Below are positions 2,956 to 16,793 of a stretch of DNA of 17,376 nucleotides, one piece after another. The translations under genes were made by a program, and so were the position numbers. The first letter of the stretch is position 1; every line of letters starts with the position of its first letter. Location of the stretch: IMG/VR virus record IMGVR_UViG_2703718846_000005, positions 1-17,376 of that record. One strand, written 5' to 3'. Source of the DNA: a virus (Duplodnaviria > Heunggongvirae > Uroviricota > Caudoviricetes). The notes beneath the pieces were generated by a model that saw only the letters and a program-made list of their open reading frames with translations, was not told the origin of the DNA and searched no databases.

Positions 2956-2973
2956 TGATGGGTATTGTGCTCT

Positions 2974-3459
2974 ATGGCTGAGATTGTTGAAGGAGTGCAT
3001 TACCTTACGGTTGATGATCTTGTTGAAATCAATCGTTCCCTAATTGAATTACAGACGCCAGATGAGCCCGTTGGTGTTCTGAGTCCAGATAACTTAAGTT
3101 CTTCTCAGGCCCGTCCCAGCATGGTTCGATGGTATGAACAGACTAATGACATGTTTGTACTGGCATCGGTATTGATTGAAAGTCTGATTCAGAATCATCC
3201 GTTTGCTAATGCGAACAAACGAACAGCTATGATGGCTGGTTACGTCTTCTTGTTGTTGAATGGCTATGAGTTAACAGCACCAGGCGATGAAATCGTGGAA
3301 ATGGCAGAGGGACTGGCCTGCAAAACCTATACTCGAGAAGATCTCGAGAACTGGTTGTGTTATTGGTCTCGCGCGTATGACAGCCGGGAATTATGTAAAA
3401 CAGGCGCAACTATTGTTTTGTATGAAACTATCAAGCTTAAAATAGAACAGCAAAACTAA
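2974..3459 (+). CDS. doc: Doc (death-on-curing) family toxin, Fic fold
   Basis: Contains HPFANANKRTA, matching the Doc motif HxFx(D/N)(A/G)NKR; size about 160 aa; start could be TTG 2965 or ATG 2974. Confidence 0.8.
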   Translation: MAEIVEGVHYLTVDDLVEINRSLIELQTPDEPVGVLSPDNLSSSQARPSMVRWYEQTNDMFVLASVLIESLIQNHPFANANKRTAMMAGYVFLLLNGYELTAPGDEIVEMAEGLACKTYTREDLENWLCYWSRAYDSRELCKTGATIVLYETIKLKIEQQN

Positions 3460-4916: not shown

Positions 4917-5291
4917 ATGGGGATAGAATTTGTTTTGCCTTACCCGCCGACGGTAAACACCTACTGGCGACGCCGTGGCAGCACATATTTTATATCGGAA
5001 GCCGGTAAGCGTTATCGCCGTGATGTGGCACTTATAGTTCGCCAGCAGAGGCTGAAATTAAACCTGTCCGGAAGGCTGGCGATAACGGTTATTGCCGAGC
5101 CTCCGGATAAGCGCCGTCGTGATCTGGACAATATCCTGAAAGCGCCACTGGATGCACTGACACATGCGGGGTTGCTCATAGACGATGAGCAGTTTGATGA
5201 AATCAATATTGTGCGCGGTCAGCTCGTTCCTGGTGGGCGGCTGGGCGTGAAGATTTACGAAATAATGCATGACGGGCAGGTCCAAAAATGA
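4917..5291 (+). CDS. rusA: Holliday junction resolvase RusA
   Basis: ..RRRDLDNILKAPLDALTHAGLLIDDEQ.. matches the RusA catalytic region; AAGAGG SD; stop overlaps Q start (ATGA). Confidence 0.9.
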   Translation: MGIEFVLPYPPTVNTYWRRRGSTYFISEAGKRYRRDVALIVRQQRLKLNLSGRLAITVIAEPPDKRRRDLDNILKAPLDALTHAGLLIDDEQFDEINIVRGQLVPGGRLGVKIYEIMHDGQVQK

Positions 5292-6109
5292 AACTGGAAG
5301 ATTTACCGAAATACTATTCCCCAAAATCGCCAGGCCTGACTGATGTATCCGCCTCGACGTCAAAAGATGCACTGAGTATCACTGATGTGATGGCTGCGCA
5401 GGGGATGACACAGAACCGGGCTGAGATGGGATTTTCTGCGTTCCTGGGGAAAATGGGTATTAGTATGAATGACAGGGTGCGGGCAACAGAATTACTGACA
5501 GATTATGCATTAAGTCAGTGCGATCGTGTGGCGGCGTTAAGGAAACTTCCGGCAGAAATAAAACCGGCAGTGATGCGTATTATGGCTTCGTATGCTTTTG
5601 AGGATTATGCCCGCAGCGCAGCGAGTAAAAAGCAGTGCCCTTGTTGCCATGGGGAAAAATTTATTGAAAGCGAAGTTTTTACAAACAAGGTTCAGTATCC
5701 GGATGGTAAGCCGCCAGTATGGGCAAAGTGTACAAAAGGCGTGTATCCGTCTTACTGGGAAGAATGGAAAAAAATCCGGGAGGTGGTGAAAGTTTCCTGT
5801 CCTGAATGTAAAGGGAAGGGGGAGATCTCCACTGCCTGTAAAGACTGCCGTGGGCGTGGTGTTGCCATTCATCGTGAAGAGTCAGAAAAACGGGGTATGC
5901 CTGTTATCAGGGGCTGCCGGCGTTGTGGCGGTCGTGGCTATGAAAGACTGCCATCAACGGAGGCATTTAATGCCATATGCAAAGTGACGAGTGCTATCAC
6001 GCTTGATACATGGAAAAAATCAGTGAAACGCTTTTACGATACGTTGGTGGTTCGGTTTGACATTGAAGAGGCATGGGCGGAGCGGCAGTTAAAGATGGTA
6101 ACGCGATAG
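5288..6109 (+). CDS. Late-gene antiterminator Q (Phage_antitermQ-like) with four CxxCxGxG zinc-finger repeats
   Basis: N-terminus MKLEDLPKYYSPKSP typical of Q antiterminators of E. coli prophages; sits immediately upstream of the late promoter. Confidence 0.8.
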   Translation: MKLEDLPKYYSPKSPGLTDVSASTSKDALSITDVMAAQGMTQNRAEMGFSAFLGKMGISMNDRVRATELLTDYALSQCDRVAALRKLPAEIKPAVMRIMASYAFEDYARSAASKKQCPCCHGEKFIESEVFTNKVQYPDGKPPVWAKCTKGVYPSYWEEWKKIREVVKVSCPECKGKGEISTACKDCRGRGVAIHREESEKRGMPVIRGCRRCGGRGYERLPSTEAFNAICKVTSAITLDTWKKSVKRFYDTLVVRFDIEEAWAERQLKMVTR

Positions 6110-6112
6110 TGT

Positions 6113-6143
6113 TGTTGATTTTTCCCGAATCTGTGGTAAATTC
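6113..6143 (+). promoter_or_regulatory. pR'-like late promoter (extended -10), presumed qut region
   Basis: TTGATT (6116-6121), 16-nt spacer, TGgTAAATT extended -10 (6134-6143), immediately after Q stop; small hairpin CGCCC-taacgat-GGGCG at 6144-6160 just downstream. Confidence 0.4.
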
Positions 6144-6190
6144 GCCCTAACGATGGGCGTTTTGTGCCTGACGTTAGAAGAATTTTTACA

Positions 6191-6217
6191 ACCCGCCACC
6201 GAGCGGGTTTTTTATTG
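6191..6217 (+). terminator. tR'-like terminator of short late leader RNA
   Basis: CCCGC-caccgag-CGGG followed by TTTTTT, about 50 nt downstream of the predicted late start. Confidence 0.65.
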
Positions 6218-6336
6218 CCCGAAAAACGGTACAGAACATTAAACGCGCTGGTGGTTACGAATACCGGTCTTTCAGCTTGTATTTTTGTAAATCGATATAT
6301 ACTTATCTTGTGACCAGTAATGTCAGGGCAATTGAT

Positions 6337-7080
6337 ATGAATGAAGCCTGTTCTGTTGTTTTTGTTCATTCCCCGTTTGTTGTGCTCTTTGAAGGAAAAG
6401 AGCTCTCTCTTGAAAGTGGTAGTGCACTTCTTGTCAGGGGGGGAGCTGGATCGTTATTGCCCTTTTCGGAATGTTTTCGGCGAATAAGTCTCAGTGAATC
6501 GACAATTAGCCGTTACCTGTTGTGTGGAGACGAAAAACAGGATGTAGTTTTAGTCCGGCAAATACCACGATATCTTTGCGTGAGTTTTCCCAAGGCAGAA
6601 TTGATGGGCATCCTGATTGATTATCTTTGTGAGGAAAAGATTCATACGGACAATTTAGCGGAAATGCTTTCCTTTTCGTGTCTGGCGTTTTTCTCATCAG
6701 AGAAAATGTTTTCGTCGTTTCTGACCGCGTGTATTAGCAATATTAGTGACAGGCTTAGTGCATTGTTTCGTACGGACATTGCAGCAAACTGGACTCTGAG
6801 AGATGTGTCTTCGCGGTTATGTATCAGTGAAAGTTTGTTAAAAAAAAGACTGAAAGAAGAAGGCACCTGTTTCAGTGAGTTGTTGCTTACAGAGAGAATG
6901 AGAATGGCAGCAATGCTGTTGAATCAATCTCGTTGCGCCATCAACAGAATCGCTGCTCAGTGCGGCTATAATTTTACATCTTATTTTATCAGCGTATTCA
7001 GGAGTTATTTTGGTGTTACACCGGCAGGTTACAGGATGGCTGCATTCAATGAGATGAGTTTAAGTGTTACTCAAGAATAA
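6337..7080 (+). CDS. AraC/XylS-family transcriptional regulator (AppY/EnvY/GadX-like), AT-rich moron
   Basis: C-terminal dual HTH (..LLKKRLKEEGTCFSELLLTERMRMAAMLL..IAAQCGYNFTSYFISVFRSYFGVTPAGYR); N-terminus MNEACSVVFV resembles AppY-type regulators; visibly AT-richer than flanks. Confidence 0.85.
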   Translation: MNEACSVVFVHSPFVVLFEGKELSLESGSALLVRGGAGSLLPFSECFRRISLSESTISRYLLCGDEKQDVVLVRQIPRYLCVSFPKAELMGILIDYLCEEKIHTDNLAEMLSFSCLAFFSSEKMFSSFLTACISNISDRLSALFRTDIAANWTLRDVSSRLCISESLLKKRLKEEGTCFSELLLTERMRMAAMLLNQSRCAINRIAAQCGYNFTSYFISVFRSYFGVTPAGYRMAAFNEMSLSVTQE

Positions 7081-7102
7081 TTGAATTTTGCACTCATTGA
7101 AA

Positions 7103-7131
7103 AAGGCTCGCTCCGGCGGGCCTTTTTCATA
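7103..7131 (+). terminator. Terminator after the AraC-family gene
   Basis: GGCTCGC-tccg-GCGGGCC hairpin (one mismatch) followed by TTTTTC. Confidence 0.5.
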
Positions 7132-7690: not shown

Positions 7691-7845
7691 AAACTGCGCG
7701 CCTTGTGCTGGCTGCCATCCTGTTGTTTCTGGTAGTGGCGGTTGATTTCACCGGGCGCCTGATGTCGGTGCTGGCTGATGGCGTGCTGGTGGTGATGGTA
7801 GTGGTCGTGCTCCGGCCTTTATTCCGGAACAAAAACAACAGCTGA
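7687..7845 (+). CDS. Small membrane peptide (52 aa) translationally coupled to the TerB-like gene
   Basis: GTG overlaps TerB-like stop (GTGA); product VKTARLVLAAILLFLVVAVDFTGRLMSVLADGVLVVMVVVVLRPLFRNKNNS is predicted TM; terminator follows. Confidence 0.4.
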   Translation: MKTARLVLAAILLFLVVAVDFTGRLMSVLADGVLVVMVVVVLRPLFRNKNNS

Positions 7846-7852
7846 TTATTTG

Positions 7853-7882
7853 AGCGGGCATTGAAAGCCCGCTGCATTTTTA
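7853..7882 (+). terminator. Terminator of the TerB-like unit, overlapping the stop of the convergent minus-strand gene
   Basis: AGCGGGC-attgaa-GCCCGCT hairpin followed by TTTTTA; the minus-strand side lacks a U-run. Confidence 0.55.
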
Positions 7883-8560
7883 TTGCTGCTGTTCCTTAAT
7901 GCGTTCCGGTAGCACAAATGCCACTTCAAGGAACAGGCGGAGAAACGCCACAAACTCTTTTGCCTGTTCACTACTGGCCTCGAGTTCGTGCACAGCCTCA
8001 TTGCCTTCCATACGGATTCGGTGAGCCCAGTTTCTCATTGATTCCGTCAGTATGCCGTCCTGCCGTGCCAGTTCAATGCGTGACAGCAGATTGCCTTTTT
8101 CGTACCCCAGGGCACGGAGGGCAACCTCGAGGACGCTACGGCAGCCAACAATGATACGCGGGGCGGTTCTGCCGGACCGAACATCCTCCTGCAACTCAGT
8201 GAAGACTGCGCGAATTTTTTCGGGATAGTGGGGGGAGTCATCGGGCAGCCTGAGTTCAGGATAGATTTTGATGCTTCCCTCAAGTGGAGCATTCAGCACC
8301 CAGGCTTTGTTGTTGATGGCTTTTTTCATGTCCACCAGTTCACTGACTGAACATTCGAATGCGATCATTAATGGGTTGTTACATTCTGTGCAAAAGTCTG
8401 TTGAGTATGCTTTTGCTGATGTTATTTCAGAGGTGCGCGGCTGTTGCACGTAAAGCTTGTTTTCTGTAGCCGGGCGCCTGCTGTGGTACTGGGTGACCTC
8501 ATTCAGAGAAATATGAACCTGATGAAGGCAGTACGGGCATCTAATTTTCAGGGAGTACAT
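7880..8560 (-). CDS. Zn-ribbon plus DUF4145-domain protein (226 aa), candidate defence/abortive-infection-type protein
   Basis: N-terminal CPYC...CTEC zinc ribbon; C-terminus ..RSVLEVALRALG..LLSRIELARQDGILTESMRNWAHRIRMEGNEAVHE..AKEFVAFLRLFLEVAF matches the DUF4145 pattern from memory; start at minus ATG 8560-8558 with AAGAGG SD. Confidence 0.65.
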   Translation of the reverse strand: MYSLKIRCPYCLHQVHISLNEVTQYHSRRPATENKLYVQQPRTSEITSAKAYSTDFCTECNNPLMIAFECSVSELVDMKKAINNKAWVLNAPLEGSIKIYPELRLPDDSPHYPEKIRAVFTELQEDVRSGRTAPRIIVGCRSVLEVALRALGYEKGNLLSRIELARQDGILTESMRNWAHRIRMEGNEAVHELEASSEQAKEFVAFLRLFLEVAFVLPERIKEQQQ

Positions 8561-8767
8561 ATGACCTCTTCGACAGAAGTGATAACTGAATTTGAAAATT
8601 GCATAGCAGATTCTGCCATTGATTCTGTAGCAGCGATAGAACGAAGGTTTGCTGCTGCTCAGACCCGGTATGGTCATGATGCAGCCGTCAAGGGGCTGGC
8701 AATGGCGTTTGTTATTGCGGAGAACCGCCGTCGCTTTATTGAAGCGCAAATGACACTAAAGCAATAA
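8561..8767 (+). CDS. Hypothetical small helical protein (68 aa)
   Basis: ATG 8561 with GGGAG SD 5 nt upstream; tandem terminators follow; start codon abuts the divergent DUF4145 gene start (CATATG). Confidence 0.45.
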   Translation: MTSSTEVITEFENCIADSAIDSVAAIERRFAAAQTRYGHDAAVKGLAMAFVIAENRRRFIEAQMTLKQ

Positions 8768-8780
8768 ATAGCACCACACA

Positions 8781-8841
8781 AAAGGCATCTGTGGGTGCCT
8801 TTGACTGGGTGTTTTTTTACGGGCCGACAGAGGCCCTTTTT
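8781..8841 (+). terminator. Tandem rho-independent terminators
   Basis: AAAGGCA-8 nt loop-TGCCTTT then U-run; GGGCC-gacaga-GGCCC then TTTTTT. Confidence 0.6.
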
Positions 8842-8860
8842 TATTTACAGGAGAAAAAGT

Positions 8861-9250
8861 ATGTCTGAACCCTTATCCGGTTCCGGCACGGCTGCGGCGC
8901 TCGGCGGGGCGACGGTATTCGGGCTGTTTACCGGAACGGATTTCGGGATTGTGTTTGGTGCATTCGCAGGGGCGCTGTTTGTGGCCACGATACCACAGAA
9001 GATTTCTGTCTGGCGTGTGGCAGCGCATTTTCTGGTGTCGTTCATTGTTGGCGTGCTGGGGGCGGATGTGATGGCGTCTTACCTGGTTGAAAAACTGAAT
9101 CTCCACAGCACATCTCTCGACGCACTTTGCGCGGTACTGGTATCGGTGGTGTCGGTGAAGATTCTCTCATTCATCCACCAGCAGGATATCGCATCGCTGG
9201 TATCCGGGCTGTTCTCCCGTCTGCGGGGTGGAGGCGGTAATGTTAAGTAA
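8861..9250 (+). CDS. Putative holin (3 predicted TM segments, 129 aa)
   Basis: AGGAG SD before ATG 8861; three hydrophobic segments, charged C-terminus; first gene of lysis cluster. Confidence 0.6.
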   Translation: MSEPLSGSGTAAALGGATVFGLFTGTDFGIVFGAFAGALFVATIPQKISVWRVAAHFLVSFIVGVLGADVMASYLVEKLNLHSTSLDALCAVLVSVVSVKILSFIHQQDIASLVSGLFSRLRGGGGNVK

Positions 9251-9515
9251 CCTTCCCGGATTACTGAATGTGGTGTTAAGCACGGTTATCGTGCTGACGC
9301 TCTTTTTTTATCGTCGCCGTGATTCCAGACATAAACCGCTGATGTCATGGCTGGCCTGGCTACTGATGCTGCTTTATGCCTTTGCACCACTCAGCTATCT
9401 GTGCGGTCGCCCGTTAGCGGCGAACTGGCTGGCGGTGGGGCTTAATCTGCTGTTCTGCGTGCTGGTGATACGTGCACGCGGGAACGTTTCAAAAATCCTT
9501 TCATTCCGGAGGTGA
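9240..9515 (+). CDS. Second holin/antiholin-like membrane protein (91 aa)
   Basis: ATG 9240 overlaps holin stop; three hydrophobic segments; basic C-terminus. Confidence 0.5.
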   Translation: MLSNLPGLLNVVLSTVIVLTLFFYRRRDSRHKPLMSWLAWLLMLLYAFAPLSYLCGRPLAANWLAVGLNLLFCVLVIRARGNVSKILSFRR

Positions 9516-9517
9516 GC

Positions 9518-9895
9518 ATGTCGGGTAAATTCAGATTCAGTCGTCGCAGTGAAAAAAATCTGGAGGGCGTCAAACCACAGCTGGTTGCTGTTGTTCGCCG
9601 TGCGCTGGAGCTGACGGAGGTTGATTTCGGTATTACGGAAGGTCTGCGCAGTAAGTATCGCCAGAAACAGCTGGTTGCAGAAGGTAAGAGCCAGACCATG
9701 AACAGCCGCCACCTGACCGGTGATGCTGTGGATGTTGTGGCTTATGTTGGCAGCCAGGTGTCATGGGACTGGCCTCTGTACGAGAAAATCGCACAGGCAT
9801 TTAAGCAAGCTGCCGCAGAGCTTGGAACTGCCATCGAATGGGGCGGTGACTGGCGGACGCTTAAAGACGGCCCACATTTTCAATTGAAGCGATAG
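9518..9895 (+). CDS. Endolysin, peptidase M15 family (L-alanyl-D-glutamate peptidase / VanY-like)
   Basis: SRHLTGDAVDV (SxHxxGxAxD zinc-binding motif) and ..WGGDWRTLKDGPHFQL; GGAGG SD before ATG 9518. Confidence 0.8.
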   Translation: MSGKFRFSRRSEKNLEGVKPQLVAVVRRALELTEVDFGITEGLRSKYRQKQLVAEGKSQTMNSRHLTGDAVDVVAYVGSQVSWDWPLYEKIAQAFKQAAAELGTAIEWGGDWRTLKDGPHFQLKR

Positions 9896-9912
9896 CTTGC
9901 AAAACATACAGG

Positions 9913-9934
9913 GCCGCCATGAGCGGCTTTTTTA
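9913..9934 (+). terminator. Terminator after endolysin
   Basis: GCCGC-catga-GCGGC followed by TTTTTT. Confidence 0.65.
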
Positions 9935-9965
9935 TTGCTCAAAAAACGAAAGAACGGAGGTACGT

Positions 9966-10247
9966 ATGTACGCACTGAAAAAAATCACGGTAACTAAAGA
10001 TGGTCGTCAGGTTGAAGAAGTGCATGTTCTGGGGAATATGTATCGTCTGGAGTTCTATCCGCGTGACACTCATCTTGCAGCAAAAATTGAGTATTGCCTG
10101 GGCGGGGATATTCCATGTATTCCGGTAGAAAAAGAGGATGAGGCTTACATTACCACGCTGACCGGAGACACGGTGCGTTGTATCTGTCGCGGTGACAGTA
10201 AAGCCAGGAATGAAATAGCCAGATGCCGCACCCAAGGCAGTAAATAA
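9966..10247 (+). CDS. Hypothetical Cys-containing protein (93 aa)
   Basis: ACGGAGG SD before ATG 9966; bounded by terminators on both sides. Confidence 0.5.
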   Translation: MYALKKITVTKDGRQVEEVHVLGNMYRLEFYPRDTHLAAKIEYCLGGDIPCIPVEKEDEAYITTLTGDTVRCICRGDSKARNEIARCRTQGSK

Positions 10248-11732: not shown

Positions 11733-12242
11733 GTGGCTACGCAGACTGAAGTTGCCAGGCATTTGAGTCTGACCGATCGCCAGCTTCGCAGATTGCAGAA
11801 ATTGCCGGGTGCCCCGGTCTCGAATAAACGGGGGCATCATGACTTGGATGCCTGGCGTGATTTTTACATATCGTATCTGAGGAGAAGTAAAAATGATGTG
11901 TCTGATGGTGATAGCGAAGAAGACTATGAAGAAAAATTACTTATCGCCAGATGGAAATTGACTGAAGAACAGGCAATAGCACAGCAATTAAAAAATCAGG
12001 TAACTGAAGGCAGACTTATTGATTCAGGGTTCTGCGTTTTCGCCCTCAGCAAACTGGCGATGGCATTGTCCAGTACGCTTGATTCCATTCCTTTATCCAT
12101 GCAGCGACAGTTCCCGGATTTAACCCCGCGTCATATTGATTATCTGAAAACCCTTATCGCAAAGGGAGCGAATCAGTGTGCGCGGGCAGGGGATAAATTG
12201 CCGGAGTTACTCGATGAATATATCCGAACAACAGTTGAATAA
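11733..12242 (+). CDS. Terminase small subunit (lambda Nu1-like)
   Basis: GTG start with GAGGTGAG SD; ..FCVFALSKLAMALSSTLDSIPLSMQRQFPDLTPRHIDYLK.. closely parallels lambda gpNu1; overlaps the large-subunit start as in lambda. Confidence 0.9.
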   Translation: MATQTEVARHLSLTDRQLRRLQKLPGAPVSNKRGHHDLDAWRDFYISYLRRSKNDVSDGDSEEDYEEKLLIARWKLTEEQAIAQQLKNQVTEGRLIDSGFCVFALSKLAMALSSTLDSIPLSMQRQFPDLTPRHIDYLKTLIAKGANQCARAGDKLPELLDEYIRTTVE

Positions 12243-14574
12243 TATGATGATCGCCGTCACAACCGCATTACAGCCACTAATAAGGGCATTGCCGGTCACG
12301 CCGGTTGAATGGGCTGATCAAAATTATTATCTGCCTAAAGAATCGTCATACGGTGAAGGAGAGTGGAAAACCCTGCCGTTTCAGGTCGCCATTATGAACA
12401 GCATGGGGCACGACAGGATCCGCACTGTTAATCTGATTAAATCGGCGCGTGTGGGTTACACCAAAATGCTGCTGGGCGTGGTCGGGTATTTTATTGAGCA
12501 TAAATCCCGTAACAGCCTGCTCTTCCAGCCGACAGATTCCGCAGCTGAAGATTTTATGAAAGCGCATGTGGAAGCAACGCTCCGGGATGTCCCCAGCCTT
12601 AAAGCGTTATCGCCATGGCTGGGCAGAAAACATCGGGACAACACACTCACCCTGAAGCGTTTTTCCTCCGGCGTGGGGTTCTGGTGCCTGGGGGGGGCCG
12701 CTGCTAAAAACTACCGTGAAAAATCTGTGGATGTGGTCTGCTATGACGAACTCTCCTCGTTTGAACCGGATGTGGAAAAAGAAGGCTCGCCGACGCTGCT
12801 TGGCGATAAACGTATCGAAGGCTCGGTATGGCCTAAATCCATACGCGGCTCAACGCCAAAAATTAAAGGCTCCTGCCAGATTGAGAAAGCGGCGAATGAA
12901 TCTGCGCATTTCATGCGGTTTTATGTCCCTTGCCCTCATTGCGGGGAGGCCCAGTATCTGAAGTTTGGCGATGATGCGACGCCGTTTGGCCTGAAATGGG
13001 AGAAGGGTAAACCCGAAACGGTGTATTACCTGTGTGAACATAATGGCTGTGTGATCCGCCAGTCGGAACTTGACCAGACCGACGGATGCTGGATTTGTGA
13101 CAATACCGGGATGTGGACGCGTGACGGCCTGACATTTTACAGTGCCGGTGATGAGGAAATCCCGCCACCGCGCTCAATTTCGTACCACATCTGGACGGCA
13201 TACAGCCCGTTCACCACCTGGGTACAGATTGTTTATGACTGGCTCGATGCACTGAAGGATCCGAATGGCGTCAAGACGTTCATTAACACCACGCTCGGGG
13301 AGCCCTATGAAGAGGCCGTGGCAGAAAAACTGAGCTTTGAGTTGTTGCTGGAAAAAGTCTGCCACTATGGCGCGCAGGTTCCCCTGCGGGTGGTTTACCT
13401 GACCGCAGGGATAGACTCCCAGAAAGATCGCTATGAAATTTATGTTTGGGGCTGGGCTCCCGGCGAAGAAGCCTTTCTGATTGACAAGCAAATTATCATG
13501 GGGCGACCGGAGGACGAGGACACCCTTAAACGTGTTGATGCGGTGATCCGGAAAAAATACCGCCATGCTGACGGTACTGAAATTTCCATTTCCCGCGTCT
13601 GCTGGGATACCGGTGGTATCGACCAGGACATTGTGTATCAGCGATCCAGAAAACACGGCACTTTTTTTGTGCTTCCCATAAAAGGGGCATCGGTGTATGG
13701 CAAGCCGGTGATCACCATGCCCAAAAAGCGCAACCAGCGTGGTGTGTTTTTGTGTGAGGTGGGCTCCGATACCGTCAAGGAAATGCTGTACGCCCGTTTT
13801 GCCCTGCCGGTGGTTTCTGCCAGTGAAGCAGCTCCGTATACCTTCCGTTTTCCGGATAACCCGGACATTTTTTCGGAAGAAGAGGCGCGTCAAATCGTAG
13901 CGGAAGAACTGGTGGAAAAGGTGGTTAACGGCAGGGTGAAACTGCTGTGGGATAAAAAAGGGCGACGCAACGAAGCCCTCGACTGCCTGGTATATGCTTA
14001 TGCCGCCCTGCGCGTTTCGGTACAGCGGTGGCAACTGGACCTTGAAGCACTGGCGATGGCACGAAAAGATGAGCAGGATGAGGATGATATGAGCATGGAA
14101 GAGATCGCGGCTGCACTGAGTGGAGGATATTCCAGTGCCAGGGCATCCGCCAATGAGTCGTGGCGGTATTTTATGGGAAAACGAAAATTTGTGGCCAGTC
14201 GCCTGGCGTCACAGATGTTTGCCTGCTGGCTGGAGGAAGCCCTTATTCGTGGTGTGATCCGTCCGCCGAAATCCCGTTTCTCATTCTGGGAGGCTCGTTC
14301 CGGGTGGTGCCGTGCCGAGTGGATTGGTGCCGGTCGTATGGCGATTGATGGCCTTAAGGAAGTGCAGGAAGCGGTGATGCGCATTGAAGGCGGCCTGAGT
14401 ACATACGAGAAAGAGCTGGCCCTGATGGGGGATGACTATCAGGAGATTTTCCGCCAGCAGCTACGGGAAACTCAGGAGCGACAGGCTGCCGGTCTTCCGC
14501 GTCCGGTCTGGATAAAGGACGCGTTTCAACAGCAGATCCGACAGACAACGGGAGAAAAAGGCGATGCGCTGTAA
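12214..14574 (+). CDS. Terminase large subunit (lambda gpA-like) fused in frame to the C-terminal part of the portal protein (gpB-like)
   Basis: N-terminus MNISEQQLNN..VEWADQNYYLPKES..GDKRIEGSVWPKSIRGSTPK.. follows lambda gpA for about 637 aa; from about 14128 the frame continues as ..YSSARASANESWRYFMGKRKFVASR..MAIDGLKEVQEAVMRIEGGLSTYEKE.., which matches the lambda portal C-terminus (from memory). Confidence 0.85.
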   Translation: MNISEQQLNNMMIAVTTALQPLIRALPVTPVEWADQNYYLPKESSYGEGEWKTLPFQVAIMNSMGHDRIRTVNLIKSARVGYTKMLLGVVGYFIEHKSRNSLLFQPTDSAAEDFMKAHVEATLRDVPSLKALSPWLGRKHRDNTLTLKRFSSGVGFWCLGGAAAKNYREKSVDVVCYDELSSFEPDVEKEGSPTLLGDKRIEGSVWPKSIRGSTPKIKGSCQIEKAANESAHFMRFYVPCPHCGEAQYLKFGDDATPFGLKWEKGKPETVYYLCEHNGCVIRQSELDQTDGCWICDNTGMWTRDGLTFYSAGDEEIPPPRSISYHIWTAYSPFTTWVQIVYDWLDALKDPNGVKTFINTTLGEPYEEAVAEKLSFELLLEKVCHYGAQVPLRVVYLTAGIDSQKDRYEIYVWGWAPGEEAFLIDKQIIMGRPEDEDTLKRVDAVIRKKYRHADGTEISISRVCWDTGGIDQDIVYQRSRKHGTFFVLPIKGASVYGKPVITMPKKRNQRGVFLCEVGSDTVKEMLYARFALPVVSASEAAPYTFRFPDNPDIFSEEEARQIVAEELVEKVVNGRVKLLWDKKGRRNEALDCLVYAYAALRVSVQRWQLDLEALAMARKDEQDEDDMSMEEIAAALSGGYSSARASANESWRYFMGKRKFVASRLASQMFACWLEEALIRGVIRPPKSRFSFWEARSGWCRAEWIGAGRMAIDGLKEVQEAVMRIEGGLSTYEKELALMGDDYQEIFRQQLRETQERQAAGLPRPVWIKDAFQQQIRQTTGEKGDAL

Positions 14575-15523
14575 TTTATCACATATTGCCGCGATGGCAT
14601 TTAATGAGCCGCTTTTACTGGAACCCGCCTATGCGCGGGTTTTCTTTTGCGCACTGGGTAAGGAGATGGGGGCGGGCAGCCTTGCCGTTCCGCAGCAGGC
14701 CGTTCAGCTTGATGCCGATGGTATGCAGCTGGCGGTTACCGATTATATGACTGGTGGTCCGCGTCCGGTAAAGAGTTACCAGGTGAAAAATGGTATTGCC
14801 ATTCTGCCGGTGAGCGGCACGTTGGTACATAAAATGGGTACCCTGCGGCCATATTCCGGTATGACCGGTTATGACGGTCTGACTGCCCGTCTTAAGTCAG
14901 CGGTGAACGACCCGGATGTACGCGGCATTTTACTGGATATCGACAGTCCGGGTGGTCAGGCTGCCGGGGCGTTTGACTGTGCTGACATGATTTACCGTCT
15001 GCGGGAACAGAAGCCCGTGTGGGCGCTGTGTAATGACATGGCCTGTTCAGCCGCCATGTTGCTGGCGGCGGCCTGTACGCGTCGGCTGGTCACGCAGACG
15101 GCAAAAATTGGTTCGATTGGTGTGATGATGGCGCACACCAGTTACGAGAAACAACTGGCACAGGAAGGCGTGGATATCACGCTGATTTACTCCGGGCAGC
15201 ACAAGGTTGACGGCAACAGTATTCAGGCGTTGCCGACAGGTGTGCGTGCGGATTTTCAGCGCCGTATTGATGAGGCCCGCCGGATGTTTGTCGACAAGGT
15301 GGCGCTTTATACGGGGCTGAGTTCAGAGGCGGTGATGAATACCGAGGCTGCCGTTTATGACGGTCAGGCAGGCATTGATACAGGCCTGGCTGATCAACTG
15401 ATTAATGCTGCAGATGCCGTTGATGTACCATATTATTCTGAAAGCCAGACAGAATACATCCGCAGTGGTCATGAGAACGGTGGCGACAGTGGTGACAGGT
15501 CCGGCAGGAGAATATGCTTTTGA
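14564..15523 (+). CDS. Head maturation protease/scaffold gpC-like (S49 peptidase family), C-terminally truncated at a deletion junction
   Basis: ..HIAAMAFNEPLLLEPAYARVFFCAL..ILPVSGTLV..SGMTGYDGL..GVMMAHTSYEKQLAQEGVDITLIYSGQHKVDGN.. parallels lambda gpC to about aa 290, then diverges into 30 unrelated codons. Confidence 0.75.
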   Translation: MRCNLSHIAAMAFNEPLLLEPAYARVFFCALGKEMGAGSLAVPQQAVQLDADGMQLAVTDYMTGGPRPVKSYQVKNGIAILPVSGTLVHKMGTLRPYSGMTGYDGLTARLKSAVNDPDVRGILLDIDSPGGQAAGAFDCADMIYRLREQKPVWALCNDMACSAAMLLAAACTRRLVTQTAKIGSIGVMMAHTSYEKQLAQEGVDITLIYSGQHKVDGNSIQALPTGVRADFQRRIDEARRMFVDKVALYTGLSSEAVMNTEAAVYDGQAGIDTGLADQLINAADAVDVPYYSESQTEYIRSGHENGGDSGDRSGRRICF

Positions 15524-16793
15524 AGCTCAGACCGGAAAATATGACGTTTATCTTCGGTCGTGTATTGAAAGGGAATACTGTGTCGGTGATATTTCGGTTT
15601 ACCACGATTCAACGCCCGGCACGCTGAATGATTTTCTGACAGCCATCGATGAAGGTGACCTCAAACCCGACGTGGTGAAACGTTTTGAGGAAATGGTGGC
15701 GCAGGCGCAGCAGAGCGCGGAAACGGCAACAGAAAGCGAACGACAGGCAGGGCAACATGCAGACGCTGCCGCCCGGGTAAAAGAAGATGTAAAAAAACTG
15801 GTGGAAGGTGTTCAGCAGAACGCCGACGCGGTTGCGGAGGGTAAACAACAGGCCGAAACTCTGGTCTCACAGGTTGAGGATACCGCCGCAGAGGTCAGGC
15901 AGGATGCTGAAGCCGCGAAAAAGGCCGCATCTGATGCAGAGCATGTCAGGGAGGATATTGACACTGCGTTATCTGCGACACTGAAAACGGCGAATCGCCT
16001 GTCAGAGCTGGCTGATGAAGGTGAAGAGGCTCAGCAGGAATCCCGTGATAATCTTGGACTGAAAAGCGCAGCCACAATGACGCCACAGAGCGACATTCGT
16101 GACCGGACTGAAGGCCGTCTGGCGACACCTGGCGCATTTGGTTTTGGGCATATTTTTTTGCCCGCAGAGCGTATCCGTTTTAACACAGAGGATGATTTTC
16201 TGTCCTGGGTAAGGAATGCGACGCCGGGTGAATATTTTGTTGAGGGTGACAGTAAAATCATATCCGGAGGTGTGTTGTTTAACGGGATGGTCCGCATCCG
16301 GTGGGTTGAGGCACGCAATAATCCACCGGAGCCGCGATATACAGCAAAGGCCATTATTTTCTACGGTATTAATGGCGATGTTTATTACAACCGCTACTGG
16401 ACAACAGGTAATGGTTATCTGACTGGCTGGGAAAATCTGAAGATGACCTCACAGGACATTATCTCTCTTCTGTCCGGTATTGCTCCCGGTACCACGGACG
16501 GCTGGTACGGTGCAGGCAGTCTTGTACTGGCGGCTTATAACGGTAAGGGAGACGCAGACACCGACCGCCGGATAAAACGCGGTTACAGCTATCCGGGGTC
16601 ACGCCTGAGCGCGGTTGAATTTATGTGTCACGGCACGACCGGTAGCGGGGTTGGATATAACGGCAGCGTTTCCGTATATGTGCGGGGTTCTGGTGGTGGT
16701 ATGCCGGGGTCATATCGGGCACTGTCAGGTGACGGGCTCGGGTCTGCCGGGTCAGCCAGTGTCATGATTGGTTTGTTCATACGTATTGCGTAG
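15426..16793 (+). pseudogene. Side tail fibre protein (Stf-like), lacking native N-terminus and start; joined out of frame to gpC remnant
   Basis: ..ILKARQNTSAVV..DISVYHDSTPGTLNDFLTAIDEGD.. matches lambda Stf from about residue 20; Ala/Glu/Gln-rich coiled-coil then C-terminal domain; only fortuitous upstream ATGs (15405) lie in gpC-derived sequence. Confidence 0.65.

Follow-up and report, generated by a model that had tools for sequence, protein, structure and literature searches.

Divergent genes in the late region of a lambdoid prophage

The window, by which is meant the whole 17,376-nt stretch of DNA analysed here, is a lambdoid prophage whose plus strand carries, in order, DUF968, RusA, Q, an AraC-family gene, TerB and DUF3927, and then two holins, an M15 endolysin, Nu1 and gpA. 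Ahead of the holin and endolysin genes (8795..9895) lies a pair of divergent genes, one of which runs against this order. The features that bear on the pair are given below, with the evidence for each in parentheses.

5288..6209, plus strand: antiterminator Q gene (5288..6109) with a promoter-like site and two hairpins (Pfam Antiterm, E 1e-49; terminator scan)
7822..8767, no strand assigned: indel cassette of ~946 bp, holding an alternative DUF3927 3′ end, a terminator, the RNase gene and the partner gene (alignment of occupied and empty sites)
7853..7873, plus strand: intrinsic-terminator-like hairpin in the late sense, within the cassette (terminator scan, fold)
7880..8560, stop codon included, minus strand: putative RNase gene, encoding a 226-aa zinc-ribbon and DUF4145/HEPN protein (ORF, Pfam, PHROG, homologues, pN/pS)
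7883..8221, minus strand: HEPN (DUF4145) domain, residues 114-226 (predicted catalytic R183 and H191)
8348..8560, minus strand: zinc-ribbon domain, residues 1-71, with C8, C11, C57 and C60 (invariant cysteines, AF2 strands)
8561..8767, plus strand: partner gene, whose 68-aa product has three helices and belongs to no described family (homologues, pN/pS, AF2)
8821..8836, plus strand: terminator-like hairpin and T-run in the late sense, just upstream of the holin ribosome-binding site (conserved flank, present at empty sites too)

Directly after Q is a promoter-like sequence, TTGATT-16-TGgTAAATT, which was called by eye and not by scan, and terminator-like hairpins are found 3′ of the gene at 6143-6159 and 6190-6209. 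This layout mirrors the classical pR′-tR′ arrangement and would represent the start of a late operon transcribed antisense through the RNase gene. The original prediction that a Q-dependent late operon runs antisense to the minus-strand gene is thus supported by Q itself, the promoter-like site, the terminators that follow it and the lysis genes downstream. The plus strand as a whole has more terminator-like sites than expected (8 found versus 1.9). The cassette contains a terminator of its own, AGCGGGC-ATTGAAA-GCCCGCT followed by GCATTTTTAT (7853-7873), which is situated between the DUF3927 stop and the RNase stop and therefore lies just upstream, in the late direction, of the 3′ end of the RNase gene; in this position it would keep non-antiterminated transcription out of that gene. 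For the minus-strand gene itself, a consensus scan yielded no convincing sigma-70 promoter, and a relaxed promoter scan of eight homologous loci, confounded by the partner coding sequence, found no positionally conserved -35/-10 pair.

Several other features of the prophage are recorded here in their own right. The interval from the partner stop to the holin ribosome-binding site (8768-8860) holds consecutive hairpins, AAAGGCATCTGTGGGTGCCTTT, and GGGCCGACAGAGGCCC followed by a T-run, which are present at empty sites too and form a terminator just ahead of the lysis genes in this group of phages. The AraC-family helix-turn-helix gene (6277..7080; region 6280-7104) takes the place of the DNA methyltransferase, tRNA-Thr and tRNA-Gly genes found between Q and TerB in related prophages, and a tRNA search of the window found none. 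The early region includes a hok/sok type I toxin-antitoxin locus at 2236-2410 (Rfam sok, 110 bits), the only Rfam match in the window, and a Fic/DOC-family gene at 2965-3459. Finally, the prophage is a deletion derivative (12178-16793), lacking 1,335 bp relative to the E. coli E9 prophage. The missing segment comprises gpW and roughly two thirds of the portal gene, and its loss has created an in-frame fusion of terminase gpA with the C-terminus of the portal protein (ORF 12178..14574, 798 aa). The S49 protease gene breaks off near 15426, and a tail-fibre N-terminal gene (15405..16793) comes directly after it. The window prophage retains no portal, capsid or tail-shaft gene that is intact.

The minus-strand reading frame is conserved as protein

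The minus-strand ORF extends from an ATG at 8560-8558 to a TAA at 7882-7880 and has a Shine-Dalgarno sequence, AAGAGG (8570-8565), 4 nt 5′ of the start. Its 226-aa product, which begins MYSLKIRCPYC and also contains the sequence FCTEC, matches phrog_1305 over its full length (E 6.5e-24), and a database search returned 29 homologues with identities as low as 42%. Ka/Ks proper is not computable from these sequences, whose synonymous sites are saturated, and pN and pS are given instead: against five loci, pN is 0.16-0.34 and the saturated pS is 0.74-0.83, for a ratio of about 0.2-0.4. Such values indicate that the reading frame is under selection at the protein level. On the opposite strand, the longest ORFs within 7880-8560 are no more than 81 aa. 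The gene proposed from the sequence is therefore real, and the minus-strand frame, as opposed to a plus-strand one, is the true frame.

The position of the start codon has consequences for how the protein is seen in databases. Full-length homologues always begin M-[YF]-[ST], and because of this a 289-aa extension starting at a TTG (7880..8749) was rejected as a mechanical artefact. In E. coli C5 and E9, the RNase gene is the sole minus-strand CDS annotated in the homologous region of the prophage, and the PGAP models (8280-8768 of locus L001 and 9503-9991 of locus L011) start at Met65 and specify 162 aa, so that the zinc ribbon is missing from the annotated protein.

A zinc ribbon joined to a HEPN domain

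The original prediction described an N-terminal zinc ribbon and a C-terminal DUF4145 region, and this architecture holds. Pfam DUF4145 (PF13643) matches residues 137-206 at E 1.4e-11, and its 44.7 bits exceed the gathering score of 23.1. The four cysteines are kept wherever homologues cover them (C8 and C11 in 22/22, C57 and C60 in 27/27). In the AF2 model of the protein (pLDDT 81), strands at residues 3-7, 14-18, 48-56 and 63-71 flank two CxxC knuckles, each CxxC being situated between two β-strands, and the N-terminal domain is, as modelled, a classical zinc ribbon. It is followed by a helix (72-83), a proline-rich linker and an all-helical domain (114-225), as is characteristic of the all-α HEPN fold. 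The zinc ribbon is the most variable region of the protein, with a mean identity to homologues of 43% as compared with 74% for the HEPN domain.

The conserved residues of the HEPN domain make up the motif R-x-x-G-N-x-A-V-H, which in the window protein reads R-M-E-G-N-E-A-V-H. The predicted catalytic residues, R183 (8014-8012) and H191 (7990-7988), are invariant in 29/29 sequences, as is G186, and N187 is nearly so. The spacing of the arginine and histidine is R-x7-H, whereas the canonical HEPN spacing is R-x4-6-H.

In one respect the original prediction is outdated, namely in the statement that DUF4145 has no assigned mechanism. DUF4145 was placed in the HEPN superfamily in 2013, when fusions to zinc ribbons were already noted (PMC3710099), and the combination of a zinc finger with DUF4145 was characterised in 2026 as PD-T7-4 (PMC13017515).

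Relationship to the ring-activated RNase RAZR

PD-T7-4 was renamed RAZR by Zhang et al. in Nature in 2026 (PMC13017515). This ring-activated zinc-finger RNase from E. coli UMB1727 (PDB 9Y9C, 9Y6U; PMC13017515, PMC9519451) consists of an N-terminal Cys4 zinc finger and a C-terminal DUF4145/HEPN domain, in which R146 and H154 are catalytic (PMC13017515). It is inactive as linear oligomers and forms a 24-mer ring around phage rings of ~170 Å, built of Erf-like recombinase or portal proteins, whereupon it cleaves single-stranded RNA nonspecifically and thereby causes abortive infection (PMC13017515). Specificity is set by the zinc finger, the most variable region of the protein (PMC13017515).

The window protein resembles RAZR in several ways. 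Both have an N-terminal Cys4 zinc ribbon that is their most variable part, a proline-rich linker with the sequence P-x-x-D-x-P and a C-terminal DUF4145/HEPN domain bearing the motif R-x-x-G-N-x-A-V-H with R-x7-H spacing, and both are of the same size class. The PADLOC PD-T7-4 model finds the window protein weakly (E 2.8e-4, 18.4 bits) and across the HEPN half only (residues 99-225). The wider family of the window protein, which comprises 2,510 representatives at E <=1e-3, mostly full-length at 220-250 aa, includes intermediates that match the same model at E values down to 7e-8, some of them across the zinc finger, and that also match the RAZR chain 9y9c. Searches of PDB sequences with the window protein and with its family profile returned nothing relevant, missing 9y9c. 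When the window and RAZR families were aligned to each other with hhalign, a match was obtained over 112 columns spanning the linker and HEPN domain (E 2e-5, probability 77%), in which R183 corresponds to R146 and H191 to H154. For pairwise comparison, the RAZR-Ec sequence was rebuilt from 9y9c alignments together with an N-terminal and a C-terminal fragment cluster, and it reproduces the landmarks of the RAZR paper (AGN at 68-70, R146 and H154); blastp aligns the window protein with it at 21% identity over 118 HEPN residues (E 0.009).

There are also clear differences. The zinc-binding cysteines of RAZR are C16, C19, C49 and C52, as against C8, C11, C57 and C60, and the knuckles are separated by 29 residues in RAZR and by 45 in the window protein, which in addition has the extra helix at residues 72-83. 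Conversely, the C-terminal tail of RAZR (~30 residues, ITRPKEIEAMF...) is without a counterpart in the window protein. RAZR loci consist of a single gene that is co-oriented with, and overlaps, an integrase gene upstream, and they have no partner like the 68-aa ORF; the window clade, by contrast, is not a single-gene system, possessing a conserved divergent partner and lying antisense inside phage lytic operons. From these comparisons, it is concluded that the window protein is in all likelihood a remote RAZR homologue that shares its architecture and falls outside the narrow PD-T7-4 family. The similarity to RAZR, the sole relative that has been characterised, is low. No experimental work on any member of the window clade was found in the searchable literature.

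A separate observation concerns annotation. The RAZR homologues P0183-P0290 are present in the protein database at 133-169 aa instead of about 211-219 aa. Gene callers systematically begin RAZR-type genes at internal methionines, and the zinc-finger sensor is consequently missing from most database entries; this N-terminal truncation is common to the RAZR family and the window family.

A conserved head-to-head partner

The original prediction suggested that the 8561..8767 ORF be considered together with the minus-strand gene, and the two indeed belong together, the small gene being a head-to-head partner in most related lineages. Its ATG directly abuts that of the RNase gene on the opposite strand (CAT|ATG), and its Shine-Dalgarno sequence, AGGGAG (8550-8555), is located within the first codons of the RNase gene. 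Partner homologues with 38-100% identity are encoded head-to-head in the same way in lineages L001, L003-5, L009-13 and L015-31, with ATG-to-ATG gaps of -2 to +2 nt in related lineages, and they occur in E. coli, Salmonella, Trabulsiella, Budvicia, Pantoea, Paraburkholderia and metagenomic phages. The pN of the partner is 0.19-0.39 and its pS is 0.73-0.90, which points to purifying selection on a sequence that evolves as protein. A conserved core, DS..DS...I.R.FA..Q...G...A...LAM...I...RRR..E, precedes a variable tail, and AF2 models the protein as a three-helix bundle (pLDDT 87). Structure comparison gave no informative neighbour, and comparison with Pfam, PHROG, NCBIfam and PADLOC identified no family, the single weak PHROG match (E 0.02) not recurring.

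The association is not universal. In L006-8 and L014, the RNase gene is intact while the adjoining partner is without a start codon and has acquired a stop, and in L032, a homologue from Sphingomonadales with 43% identity, no partner lies beside the RNase gene. The partner is accordingly not an indispensable antitoxin.

This has a bearing on two alternative readings of the pair. One is that RNase and partner form an obligate two-component defence. Instead of regulating or inhibiting the RNase, the 68-aa protein would in that case be needed as its cofactor, for example as an adaptor for the sensor or as a factor in assembly. The tight physical linkage of the genes across distant phages and hosts would fit such a dependence, as would the similar pN/pS of the two genes. 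However, with start codons that abut on opposite strands, the two genes can have no transcript in common, and antisense overlap of their mRNAs is unavoidable. The lineage in which the RNase is intact and the partner broken, and the one with no partner at all, also speak against a requirement, and RAZR acts as a single protein (PMC13017515). An obligate cofactor is thus considered unlikely.

The other reading is that of a toxin-antitoxin or addiction module, in which a HEPN toxin and a small antitoxin would stabilise the prophage and would have no role in phage sensing. The partner is no nucleotidyltransferase, which sets it apart from HEPN-MNT and other HEPN toxin-antitoxin systems (5yep, 7ae2), and it differs from them further in being divergently encoded and dispensable in at least one lineage. 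Type II systems are defined by a co-transcribed pair whose antitoxin is indispensable while the toxin is intact; the cassette has neither property. Its divergent, non-operonic arrangement is itself atypical of type II systems, and the RNase remains intact where the partner is broken by mutation. Moreover, the variability of the zinc ribbon points to an arms race over target recognition, and overproduction of RAZR is not toxic (PMC13017515). An addiction module therefore seems quite improbable.

Distribution and orientation of the cassette

The cassette is sparsely distributed among otherwise similar prophages. It is present in about 6/5,426 complete E. coli genomes, five of which cover >=80% of the query and a sixth 79%; among the remaining E. 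coli matches listed, only the flanks aligned. Most related prophages are without it, and L002 serves as the annotated empty site. A scan of genome contigs with narrow peptide patterns yielded four loci. Where present, it occupies diverse positions: between Q and the lysis genes in three different Q/lysis gene sets, between the lysis genes and the small terminase, between DUF3164 and GemA/Mor in a Mu-like prophage, and in two other phage early regions. Among the loci examined here, the RNase gene is seen in phage contexts only. This distribution is mobile and defence-like.

Despite the variety of sites, the orientation is fixed. In 10/10 contexts with annotated flanks, the RNase gene is antisense to both flanking lytic genes and the partner is in the sense direction. 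An eleventh lineage, L024, carries the partner, with unannotated neighbours that place it outside this count. Under a coin-flip null, the probability of such uniformity is roughly 0.001-0.002, a value to be read with caution, as the contexts are in part dependent on one another.

The regularity in orientation also bears on a third alternative, according to which the minus-strand protein is the phage's own factor, acting in the lytic cycle either in RNA processing or as a regulator that binds DNA or RNA. Its confinement to phage contexts would accord with this, and phrog_1305 is labelled 'DNA binding protein' under DNA, RNA and nucleotide metabolism, but the label is based on no stated experiment. 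A lytic-cycle factor would hardly be expected to lie antisense to the lytic units in every annotated context, nor to be missing from most otherwise near-identical prophages, and the invariance of the catalytic HEPN motif likewise argues for something else. Such a role is regarded as very improbable.

A resemblance in placement exists to lambda bor and similar lysogenic-conversion 'morons', each a self-contained gene of the late region that is transcribed against the late operon and expressed from the prophage. The likeness is one of placement only, the RNase cassette also being situated between Q and the lysis genes or between the lysis genes and Nu1; bor encodes a lipoprotein and has neither a partner nor a nuclease.

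In L017, L019, L022 and L023, a truncated 5′ half resembling tRNA-Thr(UGU) and oriented in the late sense extends about 40 nt beyond the DUF4145 stop codon, which is itself located inside the anticodon stem, and a remnant of this element is found in L006. ARAGORN called no tRNA at this half in the four lineages. In a past event, as this arrangement suggests, the cassette may have entered a phage tRNA gene, or taken the place of part of one, in a tRNA cluster between Q and the lysis genes.

A proposed role in defence and its control during lytic growth

Taken together, and with moderate confidence, the cassette is interpreted by analogy as encoding a prophage-borne, RAZR-type abortive-infection RNase accompanied by a lytic-phase partner that would regulate or neutralise it. 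The analyses above support the domain architecture, the fold and the catalytic motif of the protein, its remote homology to RAZR, the mobility of the cassette, the linkage of the partner, the regular orientation and the anatomy of the late operon; we infer the RNase activity, the defence function, the type of trigger, the pattern of expression and the role of the partner, possibly one of self-immunity. In this abortive-infection model, sensing would fall to the variable zinc ribbon and nuclease activity to the conserved DUF4145/HEPN domain. On the pattern of RAZR, the RNase would be made in the lysogen and remain inactive until its zinc ribbon binds a protein of an infecting phage, upon which it would assemble into an active oligomer whose HEPN dimers, through R183 and H191, cleave RNA. 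The resulting arrest of translation would abort the infection.

The position of the cassette could provide for the opposite circumstance, in which the resident prophage itself enters the lytic cycle. The 7853-7873 terminator would be passed only by Q-antiterminated late transcription, and this late read-through would both interfere in antisense with the RNase gene and express the partner. Being back-to-back with the RNase gene on the other strand, the partner is always read with the surrounding lytic unit. It would then regulate or neutralise the RNase and thereby keep the prophage from aborting its own lytic cycle. Shut-off of the RNase gene on induction, as raised in the original prediction, is plausible given that the antisense orientation recurs in all ten annotated phage contexts.

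A more specific version of this proposal can be put forward tentatively. The cassette could conceivably be a self-contained lysogeny/lysis switch, in which antisense read-through silences the RNase gene while the partner directly neutralises pre-existing RNase, preventing it from being triggered by the prophage's own portal or recombinase rings. If so, the partner would be a protein-based form of cognate self-immunity, a natural anti-RAZR and a new protein family. For the copy in the window, self-protection is moot because this prophage is without an intact portal.

Comparison with known defence systems

A validated E. coli defence protein with HEPN and zinc-finger regions, DS-38/HEP2 of DefensePredictor (WP_001313577.1), has been compared with PD-T7-4 by its authors (PMC13092281). 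It is 366 aa in length, with an N-terminal HEPN domain of R-x4-H spacing (RNRVVH) and a C-terminal multi-cysteine region. An identity of the window protein with DS-38/HEP2 was rejected on the grounds of its different length and reversed domain order.

Two prophage systems are instructive with regard to self-targeting. HepS of the Salmonella prophage Gifsy-1 (PDB 9oik) has no zinc ribbon, unlike the window protein; according to its abstract, which describes neither a partner gene nor an antisense arrangement such as that of the window cassette, it avoids self-targeting by means of a non-triggering tail-tip variant (PMC13043305). The second system is BstA, a prophage abortive-infection protein whose self-targeting is solved by a cognate immunity element, aba (anti-BstA) (PMC8585504). 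In sequence, BstA and the window RNase are unrelated. The aba determinant is a stretch of DNA within bstA rather than a protein product. For the 68-aa partner, a role in self-immunity is hypothetical.

An RNase that combines a zinc finger with DUF4145 is already known in RAZR; what is new here is the small conserved partner and the fixed orientation rule. In the literature that could be searched, neither the conserved head-to-head partner nor the antisense placement inside lytic operons has been described. The ring-activation mechanism of RAZR was published only in 2026, and for a single-gene, integrase-linked system, whereas the window clade represents a divergent RAZR-like branch that lives inside temperate phages. 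Temperate phages build portal rings themselves, and the window clade therefore faces a self-targeting problem, to which the linked partner and fixed orientation suggest a built-in solution. Should the partner prove to be an inhibitor, it would offer a ready-made control tool for RAZR-type RNases, and would constitute a third kind of prophage self-immunity, beside the trigger-variant evasion of HepS and the aba element of BstA.
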